The notes under the pieces were generated by a model. That model had not been told where the DNA came from, ran no database searches, and worked only from the letters and a program-made list of their open reading frames with translations. The position numbers were made by a program, and so were the translations under genes. From Escherichia phage vb_EcoM_bov9_1, in sequence record MT884006.2: DNA of 64,000 bases, one strand, 5' to 3'. This document shows positions 6,196 to 46,801 of the stretch, one piece after another (position 1 is the first letter of the stretch; the number at the start of each line of letters is the position of its first letter).

Positions 6196-7761
6196 ATGAC
6201 TATCAAAACTAAAGCTGAACTTTTGAACAAATGGAAGCCATTACTGGAAGGTGAAGGTTTACCGGAAATTGCTAATAGCAAACAAGCGATTATCGCTAAA
6301 ATCTTTGAAAACCAGGAAAAAGATTTCCAGACAGCTCCGGAATATAAAGACGAAAAAATTGCTCAGGCATTCGGTTCTTTCTTAACAGAAGCTGAAATCG
6401 GTGGTGACCACGGTTACAATGCTACCAACATCGCCGCAGGTCAGACTTCTGGCGCAGTAACTCAGATTGGCCCAGCTGTTATGGGTATGGTACGTCGTGC
6501 TATTCCTAACCTGATTGCTTTCGATATTTGCGGTGTTCAGCCGATGAACAGCCCGACTGGTCAGGTATTCGCACTGCGCGCAGTATATGGTAAAGACCCA
6601 ATCGCTTCCGGCGCTAAAGAAGCATTCCACCCAATGTATGGTCCAGATGCAATGTTCTCTGGTCAGGGTGCTGCTAAGAAATTCGCTGCTTTGAAAGCAA
6701 GTGATACTCTTGAAGTCGGAACTATTTACACCCACTTCTTCCAGGACACTGGTACTGTGTATCTGCAAGCTACAGCAGCTAAACAAATTGATTCAGGTGC
6801 ATCTGACGCAGACAAATTAGATGCTGAAATTAAGAAACAAATGGAAGCTGGTGTACTGGTAGAAATCGCTGAAGGTATGGCTACTTCTATCGCTGAACTT
6901 CAAGAAGGTTTTAACGGTTCTACCGATAACCCGTGGAATGAAATGGGCTTCCGTATCGATAAACAAGTTATCGAAGCTAAATCTCGTCAGCTGAAAGCTG
7001 CTTACTCTATTGAATTAGCACAAGACCTCCGCGCTGTTCACGGTATGGATGCTGATGCTGAACTGTCTGGTATTCTGGCTACAGAAATTATGCTGGAAAT
7101 TAACCGTGAAGTTGTTGATTGGATTAACTACTCAGCTCAGGTTGGTAAATCTGGTATGACCCTGACTCCGGGTTCTAAAGCTGGTGTATTTGACTTCCAG
7201 GACCCAATCGATATTCGTGGTGCTCGCTGGGCAGGTGAATCCTTTAAAGCTCTGTTGTTCCAGATTGACAAAGAAGCAGTTGAAATTGCTCGTCAGACCG
7301 GTCGTGGTGAAGGTAACTTCATTATCGCTTCCCGTAACGTAGTTAACGTTCTGGCTTCAGTTGATACCGGCATTTCTTATGCTGCACAGGGTCTGGCTAC
7401 CGGCTTTAACACTGATACTACCAAGTCAGTATTTGCTGGTGTTCTGGGTGGTAAATACCGCGTATATATCGACCAGTATGCTAAACAGGATTATTTCACT
7501 GTAGGTTATAAAGGTCCGAACGAAATGGATGCTGGTATTTACTATGCTCCATATGTAGCTCTGACTCCGCTGCGTGGTTCCGATCCGAAGAACTTCCAAC
7601 CTGTAATGGGATTCAAAACTCGTTACGGTATCGGTATCAACCCATTTGCAGAATCCGCTGCTCAGGCTCCGGCTTCTCGCATCCAGAGCGGTATGCCTTC
7701 TATTCTGAATAGCCTTGGTAAAAACGCTTACTTCCGCCGTGTATATGTTAAAGGTATCTAA
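6196..7761 (+). CDS. 23: Major capsid protein gp23 (521 aa)
   Basis: Sequence MTIKTKAELLNKWKPLLEGEG... recognised as T4 gp23; 521 aa. Confidence 0.95.
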   Translation: MTIKTKAELLNKWKPLLEGEGLPEIANSKQAIIAKIFENQEKDFQTAPEYKDEKIAQAFGSFLTEAEIGGDHGYNATNIAAGQTSGAVTQIGPAVMGMVRRAIPNLIAFDICGVQPMNSPTGQVFALRAVYGKDPIASGAKEAFHPMYGPDAMFSGQGAAKKFAALKASDTLEVGTIYTHFFQDTGTVYLQATAAKQIDSGASDADKLDAEIKKQMEAGVLVEIAEGMATSIAELQEGFNGSTDNPWNEMGFRIDKQVIEAKSRQLKAAYSIELAQDLRAVHGMDADAELSGILATEIMLEINREVVDWINYSAQVGKSGMTLTPGSKAGVFDFQDPIDIRGARWAGESFKALLFQIDKEAVEIARQTGRGEGNFIIASRNVVNVLASVDTGISYAAQGLATGFNTDTTKSVFAGVLGGKYRVYIDQYAKQDYFTVGYKGPNEMDAGIYYAPYVALTPLRGSDPKNFQPVMGFKTRYGIGINPFAESAAQAPASRIQSGMPSILNSLGKNAYFRRVYVKGI

Positions 7762-7776
7762 TCTTTGACGATTTAA

Positions 7777-7792
7777 GGGACCTTCGGGTCCC
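7777..7792 (+). terminator. Terminator hairpin after gene 23 (GGGACC-TTCG-GGTCCC)
   Basis: 6-bp GC stem, TTCG loop, followed by T-rich run. Confidence 0.6.
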
Positions 7793-7809
7793 TTTAGTTG
7801 TTTTTATGG

Positions 7810-7817
7810 TATAAATA
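7810..7817 (+). promoter_or_regulatory. Late promoter motif TATAAATA for gene 24
   Basis: Exact consensus 28 nt upstream of gene 24 ATG. Confidence 0.65.
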
Positions 7818-7844
7818 AATCATATAAACCAAAAGGAAAGCGCA

Positions 7845-9128
7845 ATGGCTAAAATCAACGAACTTCTGCGCGAATCAACCACAACGAATAGCAACTCAAT
7901 CGGTCGCCCAAATCTCGTTGCTTTGACTCGCGCTACCACTAAATTAATATATTCTGACATTGTAGCAACGCAAAGAACTAATCAACCTGTTGCTGCTTTT
8001 TATGGTATCAAATACCTTAACCCAGACAATGAATTTACATTTAAAACTGGTGCTACTTACGCTGGCGAAGCTGGATATGTAGACCGAGAACAAATCACAG
8101 AATTAACAGAAGAGTCTAAATTAACTCTCAATAAAGGCGATTTATTCAAATATAATAACATCGTTTATAAAGTATTAGAAGATACTCCATTCGCTGATAT
8201 TGAAGAAAGCGACTTAGAGTTAGCTCTTCAGATTGCAATTGTTCTTTTAAAGGTTCGTCTATTTTCTGACGCAGCGTCAACAAGCAAATTTGAAAGCTCT
8301 GATAGTGAAATTGCGGATGCTAGATTTCAGATTAATAAATGGCAAACCGCGGTTAAATCTCGTAAACTTAAAACTGGTATCACAGTTGAATTAGCGCAAG
8401 ATTTAGAAGCAAATGGATTCGATGCTCCTAATTTCTTGGAAGATTTGCTTGCAACTGAAATGGCAGATGAAATCAATAAAGATATTCTGCAGTCTTTGAT
8501 TACAGTGTCAAAACGCTATAAAGTTACAGGAATTACTGATAGTGGATTCATCGATTTGAGTTATGCATCTGCACCTGAAGCGGGTCGTTCATTATATCGA
8601 ATGGTATGTGAAATGGTTTCGCATATCCAAAAAGAATCAACTTATACAGCAACGTTCTGTGTTGCTTCAGCTCGTGCCGCTGCGATTCTTGCTGCATCAG
8701 GTTGGTTAAAACATAAACCAGAAGATGATAAATATCTTTCACAAAATGCCTACGGGTTCTTAGCTAATGGTTTACCGCTTTATTGCGATACTAACAGCCC
8801 ATTAGATTATGTAATCGTTGGTGTAGTAGAAAATATCGGTGAAAAAGAAATTGTTGGATCAATTTTCTATGCTCCGTATACAGAAGGTCTTGACTTAGAT
8901 GACCCTGAACATGTAGGTGCATTTAAAGTTGTTGTTGATCCAGAAAGCTTACAACCGTCTATCGGTTTATTAGTTAGATATGCTTTATCAGCAAATCCTT
9001 ATACCGTAGCAAAAGATGAAAAAGAAGCAAGAATAATTGATGGTGGAGACATGGATAAAATGGCGGGTCGTTCAGATTTGTCTGTTTTATTAGGTGTTAA
9101 ATTACCAAAAATTATTATTGATGAATAA
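7845..9128 (+). CDS. 24: Capsid vertex protein gp24 (427 aa)
   Basis: 427 aa matches T4 gp24; gp23-like fold paralog by position; late promoter TATAAATA 28 nt upstream. Confidence 0.9.
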   Translation: MAKINELLRESTTTNSNSIGRPNLVALTRATTKLIYSDIVATQRTNQPVAAFYGIKYLNPDNEFTFKTGATYAGEAGYVDREQITELTEESKLTLNKGDLFKYNNIVYKVLEDTPFADIEESDLELALQIAIVLLKVRLFSDAASTSKFESSDSEIADARFQINKWQTAVKSRKLKTGITVELAQDLEANGFDAPNFLEDLLATEMADEINKDILQSLITVSKRYKVTGITDSGFIDLSYASAPEAGRSLYRMVCEMVSHIQKESTYTATFCVASARAAAILAASGWLKHKPEDDKYLSQNAYGFLANGLPLYCDTNSPLDYVIVGVVENIGEKEIVGSIFYAPYTEGLDLDDPEHVGAFKVVVDPESLQPSIGLLVRYALSANPYTVAKDEKEARIIDGGDMDKMAGRSDLSVLLGVKLPKIIIDE

Positions 9129-39627: not shown

Positions 39628-40806
39628 TTAAAAGTATTTTTTAAAACTCATCATAACTTTATCATCAACATCATTATCAATCTGTGCAACAAGATAAGAT
39701 GACAGTTCTACTTCTTGTGGCGCGGATTGAACATTATCAGAATTAAGATATTCACGAATCCAAGGATATGGATGTTTAACCGGAGCATCGGTAATTGGGC
39801 ATGGAAGACCGCACTGTTTCATACGAGATACAGTTAAGTAATCAATAAAGCTCCACATGCTATTTGTATTTAATCCAGGAACATCGCCATCTTTAAATAA
39901 ATGAACTGCCCAATCTTTTTCTTGGCGGTTAACTTCCATGAAAATATCAACTGCTTCTTGTTCACACTCTTGAGCAATTTTAACCCATTCATCGCCATCA
40001 GTACCAGATTGAAGTTGACGAATAATATATTGGGTGCCTTTAAGGTGAAGCTGTTCATCGCGTGCAATGAACTTCATAATCTTGGCATTACCTTCCATGA
40101 TTTCCATGTTTTTATGGAAGTTAAAGGTACATGCGAAAGATACATAAAAACGAATAGCTTCCAATGCGTTGATTACATGCAAACAGAGGTAAAGAGATTT
40201 CATTAGCTCATGCTTCCAATATGTCTCATGCTCAATAGCATCTTCAATAACGTCTTCGTCTGCATTAATTTCTTTTTGGTATTCGATATCAGCTTTAGCG
40301 TTTTCCCAATAACGAGTTTTAATCAGAACATCATCATAATAACGTCCAATGGATTCAGCACGTTTCATAATAGCTTCATCTAATACAATTTCATCAAATA
40401 CCTTCGATGGATCAGTATAAAGATTTCGCATGATATGTGTATATGAACGGCTGTGAATAGTTTCACTAAAAGTCCACGTAGCAACCCATGTATCAAGGCT
40501 TGGGTCTGAAATTAATGACATAAGTACAGCAGACGGCGCACGACCCTGAATGCTATCCAAAAGTGATTGATACTTCAGGTTATTAGTAAAAATATTTTGC
40601 TGATACTGAGGAAGCTTATTAAACTGTGCAGCATCCATCATTAAGTTTACTTCTTCAGGCCGCCAGAAAAATGATAATTGCTTTTCGGTCAAATCTTCAA
40701 AAACTTTATGGCGTTGAATATCATAACGCGCAATACCAAGACCTGAACCAAAAAACATAGGTTCTTTTAAAACATCAACTGGATTTGTATTAAAAACTGT
40801 AGACAT
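39628..40806 (-). CDS. nrdB: Ribonucleotide reductase small subunit NrdB, uninterrupted (no intron)
   Basis: Continuous about 392 aa ORF from MSTVFNTNP; di-iron RNR small subunit composition; start overlaps HNH gene stop (TAATG). Confidence 0.9.
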   Translation of the reverse strand: MSTVFNTNPVDVLKEPMFFGSGLGIARYDIQRHKVFEDLTEKQLSFFWRPEEVNLMMDAAQFNKLPQYQQNIFTNNLKYQSLLDSIQGRAPSAVLMSLISDPSLDTWVATWTFSETIHSRSYTHIMRNLYTDPSKVFDEIVLDEAIMKRAESIGRYYDDVLIKTRYWENAKADIEYQKEINADEDVIEDAIEHETYWKHELMKSLYLCLHVINALEAIRFYVSFACTFNFHKNMEIMEGNAKIMKFIARDEQLHLKGTQYIIRQLQSGTDGDEWVKIAQECEQEAVDIFMEVNRQEKDWAVHLFKDGDVPGLNTNSMWSFIDYLTVSRMKQCGLPCPITDAPVKHPYPWIREYLNSDNVQSAPQEVELSSYLVAQIDNDVDDKVMMSFKKYF

Positions 40807-41537
40807 TAATTTTTCCTCTTTAAAATTCTGCCGTGTTTCCAACCTGGCGGTATAATATCATCTTTACCTATAAGCGTGCATTCACTTCCATTATTAATCC
40901 ATTTCTTACCACGAATTCCTTTATAATCTCTTGGTTTTATTTTGTCAAACTTTGCATCAAGTTGATATGCCCATCTAAATCCATAGGCATATTGAAATTT
41001 ACCCTCAGCACAATATTTGATATTTGACCCGTTTCCATTAACTGACCGGGACGCTTCCGCGATAGAGTGAAATGTTTCTATAAAATCCCCATCTAATGAG
41101 AATTTATGTATTTCGATAGATGGACATGCATACCTATTCACGTTTGATACATGTTGTTTAGTTTCGTTTTTATGATGCTTGCCTAACATTCCTCTAGGAT
41201 GAGGATTATTTTTCCAATATTTCTTAAAGAAATCAGAATTAGCTTTAGCAAATAATTTTCTGTGCAAGCTATACAATCTGTTATTAATTCTATTACCAGC
41301 TTTATCTGTTGCCATTAACGTTAACGCAGAGGCAAGCCCAAAATGGCCTTCATTTATCTTACATAGTAATAGATGCGCTATAAAATGTTCTCTAGCTGTT
41401 AATTCAACTAAATTTTCTTTATCATCAGAACCTCCCATGCATTTAGGGACTATATGATGTGTCTCTTTATATTCGGATAAAGGTTCCCGAGCCTGAGCTC
41501 GGGAAATTAGGTCATTATAGATTTTTTGATAATTCAT
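40806..41537 (-). CDS. mobE: HNH homing-endonuclease-like protein (243 aa), mobE-like by position
   Basis: N-terminal HNH motif HHIVPKCMGGSDDKENLVELTAREHFIAH; nested between nrdA and nrdB with 1-nt TAATG overlaps at both ends. Confidence 0.55.
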   Translation of the reverse strand: MNYQKIYNDLISRAQAREPLSEYKETHHIVPKCMGGSDDKENLVELTAREHFIAHLLLCKINEGHFGLASALTLMATDKAGNRINNRLYSLHRKLFAKANSDFFKKYWKNNPHPRGMLGKHHKNETKQHVSNVNRYACPSIEIHKFSLDGDFIETFHSIAEASRSVNGNGSNIKYCAEGKFQYAYGFRWAYQLDAKFDKIKPRDYKGIRGKKWINNGSECTLIGKDDIIPPGWKHGRILKRKN

Positions 41538-44358: not shown

Positions 44359-45219
44359 TTACACCGCCATCTTTCCTTTCAAGACACCATGGGACTGATA
44401 ATCTTTGAGAACGAAATCTCGTGCTGTCATATATTCAGTTAACCAATACATTTGAGTTTCAGTATCGCATTGACTGAATCCATTAGGCCAATTAATACTA
44501 AGTTTGCATAGATCCATAGGAGTTCTATTTAATATCTCTTTGCATTGCTCAATATGGTTAGAATAAATGTGTGTATTACCACCCGAGAATACCAAATCGC
44601 CCGGAACTAGTTCACACATATCAGCAACAATATGCAAAAGAGCAGCATAACTCGCGATGTTAAATGGAAGACCGAGGAAAACATCTACCGAACGTTGATA
44701 CCATTGGAGGTCAAGGTATCCGTTACGCACATTAAACTGATAGAACATATGACAAGGAGGTAATGCCATCTGCTTGAGTTCAGCTGGATTCCATGCCGAC
44801 ACAATTTGACGCCTATCGTTGGGAAATGTTTTAATACGATTAACAACTTCTACAATTTGATCTACACCACCAAAATCACGCCACTGTTTTCCGTAAATTG
44901 GACCAAGTTCACCGCTATGATAACCTAAGTCTTTGGCCTGGTTTTCGTAGTTTTCATCCCAAATTGTTTTTCCTGCAATTAAAGATCCATGAGTACGTTG
45001 ACGTAAATCATTTACGTTAGTACTTCCTGATAAGAACCACAATAACTCAGAAATACATGCATTCCAGGCGAGCTTCTTAGTCGTTACTGCAGGAAAACCT
45101 TTAGTTAAATCCCAGCGTAATTTAGTACCGAACAAAGCAATTGTTCCTGTGCCTGTTCGGTCATCAGTTTCATAGCCATTTTCAAAAATGTCTTTAATTA
45201 AATCTTGGTATTGTTTCAT
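44359..45219 (-). CDS. td: Thymidylate synthase, uninterrupted (286 aa, no intron)
   Basis: 286 aa continuous ORF; TS active-site region PPCH; recognised as T4 Td exon-joined sequence. Confidence 0.95.
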   Translation of the reverse strand: MKQYQDLIKDIFENGYETDDRTGTGTIALFGTKLRWDLTKGFPAVTTKKLAWNACISELLWFLSGSTNVNDLRQRTHGSLIAGKTIWDENYENQAKDLGYHSGELGPIYGKQWRDFGGVDQIVEVVNRIKTFPNDRRQIVSAWNPAELKQMALPPCHMFYQFNVRNGYLDLQWYQRSVDVFLGLPFNIASYAALLHIVADMCELVPGDLVFSGGNTHIYSNHIEQCKEILNRTPMDLCKLSINWPNGFSQCDTETQMYWLTEYMTARDFVLKDYQSHGVLKGKMAV

Positions 45220-45263
45220 TTAGTACCTTATATAAATTATAATACATTTTATGAAGCTAATAA

Positions 45264-45611
45264 TCAATACGGTTTAGCATCAAATTTTCTTTCAATTTCA
45301 GGCGTAAAATACAATTCTTTACCACGCTTGGAAAAGCGACCAATAATATGATAATTATTCTCATCAAACGTGATATTGCCGATATCCATAGCTTTCAACC
45401 AAATATCGATATTTCTGTCAAGCTTTATATCAAAATTCCAATACGGAGAACTATTACCGAAAATACTACAAGCGGATTCAGTGAAACAACTGCTATAAAT
45501 CTTGTCTTTAGGAACTACTAATTGATAGACGCCTTTAATAAACTGAGGACCCTGCCAATTTGGTTGTTTCGCGTCTTTTTCTAATAGAATAGGGTAATAA
45601 TTAAAATTCAT
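45264..45611 (-). CDS. Hypothetical protein, 115 aa, lying between frd and td
   Basis: ORF fills the 411-nt frd-td gap; no recognisable motif. Confidence 0.5.
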   Translation of the reverse strand: MNFNYYPILLEKDAKQPNWQGPQFIKGVYQLVVPKDKIYSSCFTESACSIFGNSSPYWNFDIKLDRNIDIWLKAMDIGNITFDENNYHIIGRFSKRGKELYFTPEIERKFDAKPY

Positions 45612-45630
45612 ATTTTCCGTCAGTGTTATT

Positions 45631-46457
<827 letters not shown>

Positions 46458-46465
46458 ATTATCTC

Positions 46466-46801
46466 CTAATATAAAGGATCGGGAACATATCCACTGGCTT
46501 TAATCATTTTGATTAACGTTAGCAGTCCTTTATTAACTGCTTGTGAGATTTCATTAAAAACTTCATCACTAAAAAGTTCTAGCACACCCTTCTGAACTTT
46601 TAATTTACAGCCAACAATTTCGTCATCGCCTATAGTAAATTCGTTTCCGCCAATTCCACCGAAAAACTTAATTACGCCAGTTAACTGTGTTCCACGAGAA
46701 TATGGGTCGTGTGATAAAGTAATATGAGTCACCCCAGGTACAGTTTTAAATTGACAGCGGATGTTTACTTGAGCAATTCCAGTTACATGAATGTCAGACA
46801 T
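46466..46801 (-). CDS. Hypothetical protein, 111 aa (frd.2 position)
   Basis: ORF; synteny. Confidence 0.5.
   Translation of the reverse strand: MSDIHVTGIAQVNIRCQFKTVPGVTHITLSHDPYSRGTQLTGVIKFFGGIGGNEFTIGDDEIVGCKLKVQKGVLELFSDEVFNEISQAVNKGLLTLIKMIKASGYVPDPLY

Follow-up and report, generated by a model that had tools for sequence, protein, structure and literature searches.

The window analysed here is a stretch of 64,000 nucleotides from Escherichia phage vb_EcoM_bov9_1 (sequence record MT884006.2), in which the genes for dihydrofolate reductase (frd) and thymidylate synthase (td) follow each other on the minus strand. The stop codon of frd and the start codon of td are separated by 411 nt (45220..45630), and this gap is made up of a short spacer, a 115-codon open reading frame (hereafter gene X) and a second spacer that leads into td (Table 1). 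A preliminary description of this DNA had pointed out the minus-strand ORF and the 411-nt gap, and both were confirmed from the ORF list and the sequence, which also give MNFNYYPILLEKDAKQPNWQ as the N-terminus of the X protein. Escherichia phage vB_EcoM_G50 (Tequatrovirus) matches a 1.1-kb query covering this region at 100% identity, and the X protein is 100% identical to the G50 hypothetical protein YP_010070061.1.

Table 1. Features of the frd-td junction in the window.
Feature	Position	Strand	Description
Gene X	45264..45611	-	115 aa; ATG start, TGA stop; member of PHROG 1928
frd (dihydrofolate reductase)	45631..46212	-	upstream neighbour, on the same strand as X
td (thymidylate synthase)	44359..45219	-	downstream neighbour; single uninterrupted ORF of 286 codons
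frd-X spacer (19 nt)	45612..45630	-	weak Shine-Dalgarno-like GGA at 45618..45616
X-td spacer (44 nt)	45220..45263	-	promoter-like hexamers TTGATT-17-TATTAT (promoter scan)
Direct repeat, copy 1: TAAATGAAATAACAC	45623..45637	-	spans the frd stop codon (45631-45633)
Direct repeat, copy 2: TAAATGAAACAATAC	45208..45222	-	td start codon and its surroundings

X is a genuine, strongly conserved protein-coding phage gene, because a frame of this length is rarely open by chance, its dN/dS is low and distant homologues exist at the protein level. Of 20,000 shuffled versions of the 411-nt spacer, 39 contained 115 or more consecutive codons free of stops in one frame or another. The window copy differs from that of T2 by 15 synonymous changes and a single non-synonymous one (dN/dS 0.012), the sole substitution being Asn18 in the window protein, a lysine in both T2 and T6 (99% protein identity). 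Comparison of the window copy with those of T2, T6, phiD1 and Shf125875 gives dN/dS values of 0.012-0.058, other pairs among the window, T6, phiD1 and Mosigvirus copies give 0.026-0.058, and the window copy shows 0.055 against a Mosigvirus copy and about 0.12 against a copy only 62% identical. The small size of the ORF, its lack of known domains and the missing annotation in one T2 RefSeq record might suggest that a non-coding spacer happens to be open in this frame, or that the frame masks an RNA element, but this has a negligible probability, given how few shuffles are as long, the ratio of about 15:1 between synonymous and non-synonymous substitutions, the protein homologues down to 28% identity and the absence of any Rfam family near threshold in the region; the substitution pattern and the tblastn homologues already refute it.

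X is on record as a member of an uncharacterised family, PHROG 1928, whose profile matches it with an E-value of 9.3e-36 (123 bits), residues 4-111 aligning with profile positions 2-125 of 126. This family, to which no function is assigned, includes the proteins of T2 (BBF63391.1), T6 (BBF63653.1) and Shf125875 (YP_009100774.1), which are the same gene as X; the Shf125875 record names its copy 'similar to RB32ORF229c'. The earlier statement that the protein has no recognisable motif agrees with the searches of Pfam, NCBIfam, PADLOC and PDB sequences, which were without a significant match both for the single protein and for a 46-member alignment or profile of the family, PHROG 1928 being the one family that does match. 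For X itself, Pfam, NCBIfam and PADLOC gave no match at E-values up to 10, and PDB sequences gave matches at chance level only (E of at least 0.56). In the 46-member alignment W19, G91, K95 and G97 are invariant and Q16, G27, Y29, F93 and F102 nearly so, and all of these residues are present in the window protein. A full-text search found no literature that names or tests X.

X is found in most Tequatrovirus genomes, T2 and T6 included. A tblastn search with the protein retrieved 582 phage records, 362 of them at 90% identity or more (T2, T6, RB5, PST, phiD1 and many others) and 220 below 60%. Homologues at 28-46% identity occur in Jiaodavirus, Marfavirus, Winklervirus, Gelderlandvirus, Roskildevirus and a Karamvirus-like Enterobacter phage. 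Among proteins, a word-indexed search of 5.8 billion entries returned 12 clusters, and an exhaustive profile search among 1.84 billion representatives yielded just 40 X-family proteins, which come only from phages and, two fragments aside, are all 95-139 aa long. The distant loci inspected were those of the Klebsiella phages Mineola (Jiaodavirus) and R3_1 (Marfavirus), Erwinia phage Cronus (Roskildevirus), Serratia phage CHI14 (Winklervirus), a Salmonella Gelderlandvirus and the Enterobacter phage, together with two metagenomic contigs. An X homologue lies inside the frd-td interval in all six phage loci and in both contigs, and it directly follows frd in both contigs and in five of the six phages, the exception being Cronus, where a related gene, Y, stands between frd and X.

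Y is a paralogue of X, and the two make up a family that is defined in the present analysis by the conserved residues given above and by its residence in the frd-td interval of Tevenvirinae; the window X lies between these two genes and on their strand. Members of the X form have about 100-119 aa and those of the Y form about 113-144 aa. Both share a core (Q-K-K-W, H-G-I-Y, G-N and a G-R-F-x-K-x-G...F-x-P hairpin), and Y differs by an insertion of some 15-25 residues after the invariant tryptophan (W-PL...PTIxEYxxNPxxY), which X does not have. Aligned with the X profile by hhalign, the Y protein of contig L011 scored a probability of 95.5% (E 1.6e-8), and the 144-aa protein beside X in Cronus, which was also a hit in BFVD, matched more weakly. 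In many of the distant loci inspected, Y stands next to X. Y alone was found in 129 phage records, and it lies in the frd-td interval wherever its neighbours can be seen from the annotation or from a locus that was inspected. It is carried by Karamvirus, Moonvirus, Gelderlandvirus, Winklervirus, Marfavirus and other genera, in the same interval and orientation as X, and is absent from the window and from other Tequatrovirus genomes; a six-frame HMM search detected no further member of the X family in the window.

A third small gene, Z (about 68 aa), which is unrelated to X and Y, follows in some loci, and different genera hold X, Y and Z in different combinations between frd and td. The order is X, Y in Winklervirus, with the same two-ORF layout in Gelderlandvirus, and Y, X in Roskildevirus; X is alone in most Tequatrovirus, in Jiaodavirus and in some Mosigvirus, and the interval is empty in the T4 group and in RB69. 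In JS98 (Dhakavirus, NC_010105) the sole occupant of the interval is an unannotated 68-aa ORF on the minus strand (6215-6416 of the locus), which begins MSNKLKVKDVPNAMALF, is connected to its neighbours by ATGA and TAATGA overlaps and is clearly homologous by eye to the 69-aa Z of contig L011. The X/Y family is restricted to T4-like phages (Tevenvirinae). Since its distant homologues occupy the same frd-td interval, it is an old family at this position, to which T4 is the exception.

The flanking genes, their strand and their order are the same in T4 as in the window, and the frd genes of the two are 93.9% identical in nucleotide sequence. The difference lies in 415 nt, comprising X and two short spacers, which part frd from td in the window and are missing from T4, where the 3' end of frd and the 5' end of td align directly: in a pairwise alignment T4 matches the window up to ...GTATATAAATGAAA, a clean 415-nt gap follows and the match resumes in td. 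In the T4 reference (NC_000866) frd occupies 145109-145690 and td ends at 145112, so that the two genes overlap by 4 nt (ATGA) with nothing between them. The preliminary description had described this direct overlap correctly, and alignment of the junction, the check suggested alongside it, found no homologous ORF between frd and td in T4. This overlapping arrangement of T4 (GenBank M12742) was reportedly described by Purohit and Mathews in 1984. A further difference concerns td, which in the window has neither a group I intron nor I-TevI and in T4 (7236-9113 of the T4 locus) consists of two exons and an intron carrying I-TevI.

The T4-type junction was found in only 35 phage records, about half of which are T4 stocks. 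The others comprise RB55, RB59, vB_EcoM_112, G28, F1, FN, FL12, HY03, SG1, G2133, JEP6, FL18, ECO07P1/P3 and CJY920. RB69 has the same frd/td overlap, and its 20-nt junction, TATAAATGAAACAATACCAA, is identical to that of T4, so that the phages lacking X are T4, about a dozen close relatives and RB69. Two explanations had originally been offered for the ORF, a lineage-specific insertion and a gene absent from the T4 reference. The second is upheld by the 35 T4-type records set against the 362 that hold the ORF at 90% protein identity or more, and the first is not favoured, because homologues of 28-46% identity reside in the same interval in at least six other genera. At this junction it is the T4 reference that is the odd one out, and comparison with T4 makes a widespread gene look like an inserted one.

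The end zones of the missing segment contain a direct repeat, D2, whose two 15-nt copies (Table 1) are identical at 13 positions (87%) and lie 415 nt apart; a repeat of this quality between the two zones appeared in 33 of 5000 shuffles. All the X-carrying Tequatrovirus phages examined (T2, T6, EP01 and phiD1) have this repeat, and T4 keeps exactly one copy, the left part of which corresponds to the frd side and the right part to the td side. Spontaneous deletions in T4 are known to arise between short direct repeats. Because the 415 missing nucleotides are bounded by the repeat and T4 retains one copy of it, the junction has the signature of a deletion, and the absence of X from T4 would probably be a loss, although this direction is read from the sequences compared. 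The segment with X would have been removed by recombination or slippage between the 15-nt repeats, precisely to the gene, and its removal would have restored the ATGA overlap of frd and td. The locus may also illustrate in clean form how deletion between short repeats that lie at gene junctions can remove precisely one gene.

The same repeat can be read in the opposite direction. The sequence that follows the frd stop, ATGAAATAACAC, and the start of td, ATGAAACAATAC, are alike, and a mini-ORF of two codons within copy 1 of the repeat (ATG AAA TAA, 45634..45626 on the minus strand), whose ATG overlaps the stop codon of frd (ATGA), looks like a decayed td start; it is kept in T2, T6, EP01 and phiD1 and reads ATG AAA TAG in Shf125875. 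It is therefore conceivable, if distinctly less probable than a loss, that the ATGA overlap is ancestral to the T-even group (Tequatrovirus and Mosigvirus) and that X was put back through recombination with a remoter T4-like phage, an event that left a decayed second td start after frd, in which case T4 never lost the gene and most of its relatives gained it. Apart from the 13/15 match between the frd stop and the td start, a re-insertion would account for the identical 20-nt junctions of T4 and RB69, which belong to different genera. It would also be consistent with the Mosigvirus Shf125875, whose X has 93% protein identity within flanks that are only about 80% identical, so the X cassette does move between genera. 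However, at least six further genera have the family in their frd-td interval, in a relative of 62% identity the start codon of X and the stop codon of frd share an ATGA overlap, the flanks of T4 nest within the diversity of the X-carrying phages, and the repeat is equally usable as a substrate for deletion.

In neighbour-joining trees built for frd and for td exon 1, T4 falls among the X carriers and the phages with and without X are interleaved; the carriers nearest to T4 are phiD1 by frd (97.9%) and T6 by td exon 1 (96.9%). These trees weakly favour a loss, and their topology fits a loss or an exchange of alleles by recombination inside Tequatrovirus; the two kinds of alleles are interleaved in the flank trees, so that recombination obscures a simple history.

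The X-lacking allele is associated with the td intron. A chimeric query, built from the T4 junction and the 5' end of the intron and used with a strict E-value cut-off, detected the intron in 32 of the 35 X-lacking records, including FL18, in which the I-TevI ORF is partly deleted. The other three are CJY920, which has an intron without the I-TevI ORF, FL12, which has no intron, and one partial T4 record. A strict rule by which loss of X equals gain of the td intron was rejected, since T6, RB5 and PST carry both intron and X and FL12 carries neither; T2 has X without the intron. The association that persists is one-way, the X-lacking allele being almost always linked to the intron. The distance from the junction to the intron insertion site downstream is 549 nt, and because of this distance and of the linkage of the alleles it is plausible that the 415-nt deletion allele may spread by hitch-hiking, that is, by co-conversion during I-TevI homing.

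Homing-endonuclease genes of the seg (GIY-YIG) and mob (HNH) types sit between genes of T4, and X might accordingly be looked at as the cargo or the remnant of a mobile element, for example a free-standing homing-endonuclease cassette. Its presence or absence exactly between two conserved genes, the proximity of td, which is a known target of I-TevI homing, and the intron linkage of the X-lacking allele are what such an origin would predict. Nevertheless, no GIY-YIG, HNH or other nuclease domain was detected at E-values up to 10, the 46 members of the family likewise gave no match to any nuclease family, a protein of 115 aa is too small, and copies of X diverge to about 30% identity across genera with their position unchanged. 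Moreover, the intron co-occurs with X in T6, RB5 and PST, which implies that X is not part of the intron element. The lack of a nuclease domain and the fixed position despite divergence essentially refute a mobile-cassette origin, which retains a very small probability. Elsewhere in the window, between nrdA and nrdB, a 243-aa gene on the minus strand (about 40806-41537), a homing endonuclease by the G50 annotation, takes the place of T4 mobE and nrdB.1; nrdB of the window is intronless, and segG is missing between genes 32 and 59.

As to expression, the promoter and terminator scan of the region found no terminator-like site between frd and td. In contrast to the 19-nt spacer of the window, most other genera have the start of X overlapping the stop of frd; overlaps of 1-23 nt occur in eight loci (L003, L004, L006, L007, L008, L011, L012 and L019). 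Since X shares the strand of its neighbours, no terminator-like site intervenes and start and stop codons overlap in most genera, X would be made together with dihydrofolate reductase (DHFR) and thymidylate synthase (TS), in the pre-replicative period. In the Shigella phage Shf125875 (694-1311 of the locus) one additional A close to the end of frd causes a frameshift that extends DHFR by 12 residues, so that it overlaps the start of X by 11 nt. The 44-nt spacer between X and td, which is absent in T4 and has 13 nt in Shf125875, contains the sequence TTAGCTTCA (45260..45252, minus strand), which resembles a MotA box and may be one by comparison with the T4 middle-promoter consensus, followed 10 nt further on by TATAAT (45241..45236); with the hexamers of Table 1, these promoter-like elements fall within 45236-45267. 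No signal of RNA structure was detected in this spacer (fold z = 0.23). The best sigma-70-like match in the region (TTGACC-16-TATAAT, 11/12; 45833-45860, minus strand) lies inside frd, about 220 nt upstream of X.

An AlphaFold model of X, built on a 13-sequence alignment (mean pLDDT 81.7, pTM 0.75), has strands at residues 6-12, 27-34 and 62-64, a helix at 68-76 and further strands at 80-82, 86-96 and 99-104, which predicts a small beta-barrel with a single helix for X. The order of these elements (b1-b2-b3-helix-b4-b5) matches that of OB folds such as those of RPA, Teb1, Cdc13, S1 and SSB, with a best Foldseek E-value against the PDB of 0.5. The significant structure matches in BFVD are all uncharacterised proteins, and those that are named come from T4-like phages. 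The family is mildly basic, with a median pI of 8.8. X could tentatively be considered a non-enzymatic accessory binding protein working beside the nucleotide-synthesis module, with single-stranded nucleic acid or a protein as its ligand, a proposal to which we give a rather low probability. As a whole, the explanation that we consider best, and in which confidence is good, is that X is a real gene of the Tevenvirinae frd-td interval whose absence from T4 is read as a loss and for which an accessory binding role is a guess.

Purifying selection on X is very strong, although there are natural phages that lack it. A partnership with DHFR that is obligate is argued against by the DHFR gene of T4, which is 97.9% identical in nucleotide sequence to that of an X carrier, and the T4 enzyme shows no adaptation to the loss of X. 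The conserved position of X among small early genes of T4-like phages need not reflect a functional link. It is doubtful, and less probable than a general binding role, that X (with Y) is a hitherto unrecognised, dedicated accessory of the folate/dTMP module, either an OB-like tether of DHFR/TS, the dNTP-synthesising complex, to ssDNA or the replisome or a regulator of td/frd. If true, the loss of X by T4 would explain why decades of T4 genetics missed it.

A role unrelated to nucleotide metabolism and directed at the host, in takeover or counter-defence, has about the same rather low probability as the accessory binding role. The position of X next to frd would then be a historical accident, and the gene would matter on wild hosts and be dispensable in T4-type phages. 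Such a role would fit a gene that some natural phages possess and others lack in spite of its very strong purifying selection, that is small, of the early-gene type and confined to phages (in all 40 representatives), and that is found in an interval which behaves as a variable array of the small genes X, Y and Z; other small T-even proteins with no assigned function were shown to bind host enzymes (bioRxiv 10.1101/2024.12.17.629029). On the other hand, neither the defence nor the candidate-defence models of PADLOC matched X at E-values up to 10, the full-text search gave no paper on the protein, the place directly after frd is kept in all genera inspected but one, which is unusual for fast-turnover counter-defence genes, and a dN/dS of 0.01 is unlike that of an arms-race gene. 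The bNACHT11 activators of T2 (gp6, gp9, gp46 and gp57) have protein accessions other than that of X; the T2 record used in the bNACHT11 work carries no annotation of X.

Although its existence will not surprise specialists in T4-like phages, X is a reasonable and low-cost target for functional work, combining selection as strong as that on an enzyme (dN/dS about 0.01) with one position across many genera, and its natural absence from some phages offers ready-made comparisons of an isogenic-like kind. The annotation of the gene is uneven. In the T2 RefSeq record NC_054931.1 it is left unannotated in a 413-nt td-frd gap (138707-139119), whereas another T2 record, AP018813, annotates it; because of this omission, screens based on the RefSeq gene list would miss X. 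Three records, OK272476 (JLBYU24), OM386666 (ESCO58) and PP526941 (ECO78), label X as 'putative dihydrofolate reductase' or 'reductase'. An R67-type DHFR was rejected as a candidate, with no match to DHFR_1 or DHFR_2 in Pfam or NCBIfam at E-values up to 10, and since no DHFR family matches X these labels appear to be errors of annotation carry-over.

The other side of frd also differs from T4. Two small minus-strand ORFs, at 46212-46457 (81 aa) and 46466-46801 (111 aa), lie between frd and frd.1 in the window, compared with a frd-frd.1 gap of only 71 nt in T4. With X and these small ORFs missing, T4 is reduced on both sides of frd. Remote homology of X to frd.2 or to the 111-aa ORF was tried with hhalign and rejected (probability 0.1%). 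An ORF like the 81-aa one, of the same size and in the same position, is annotated in T2, T6, HY03, FL12 and FL18.
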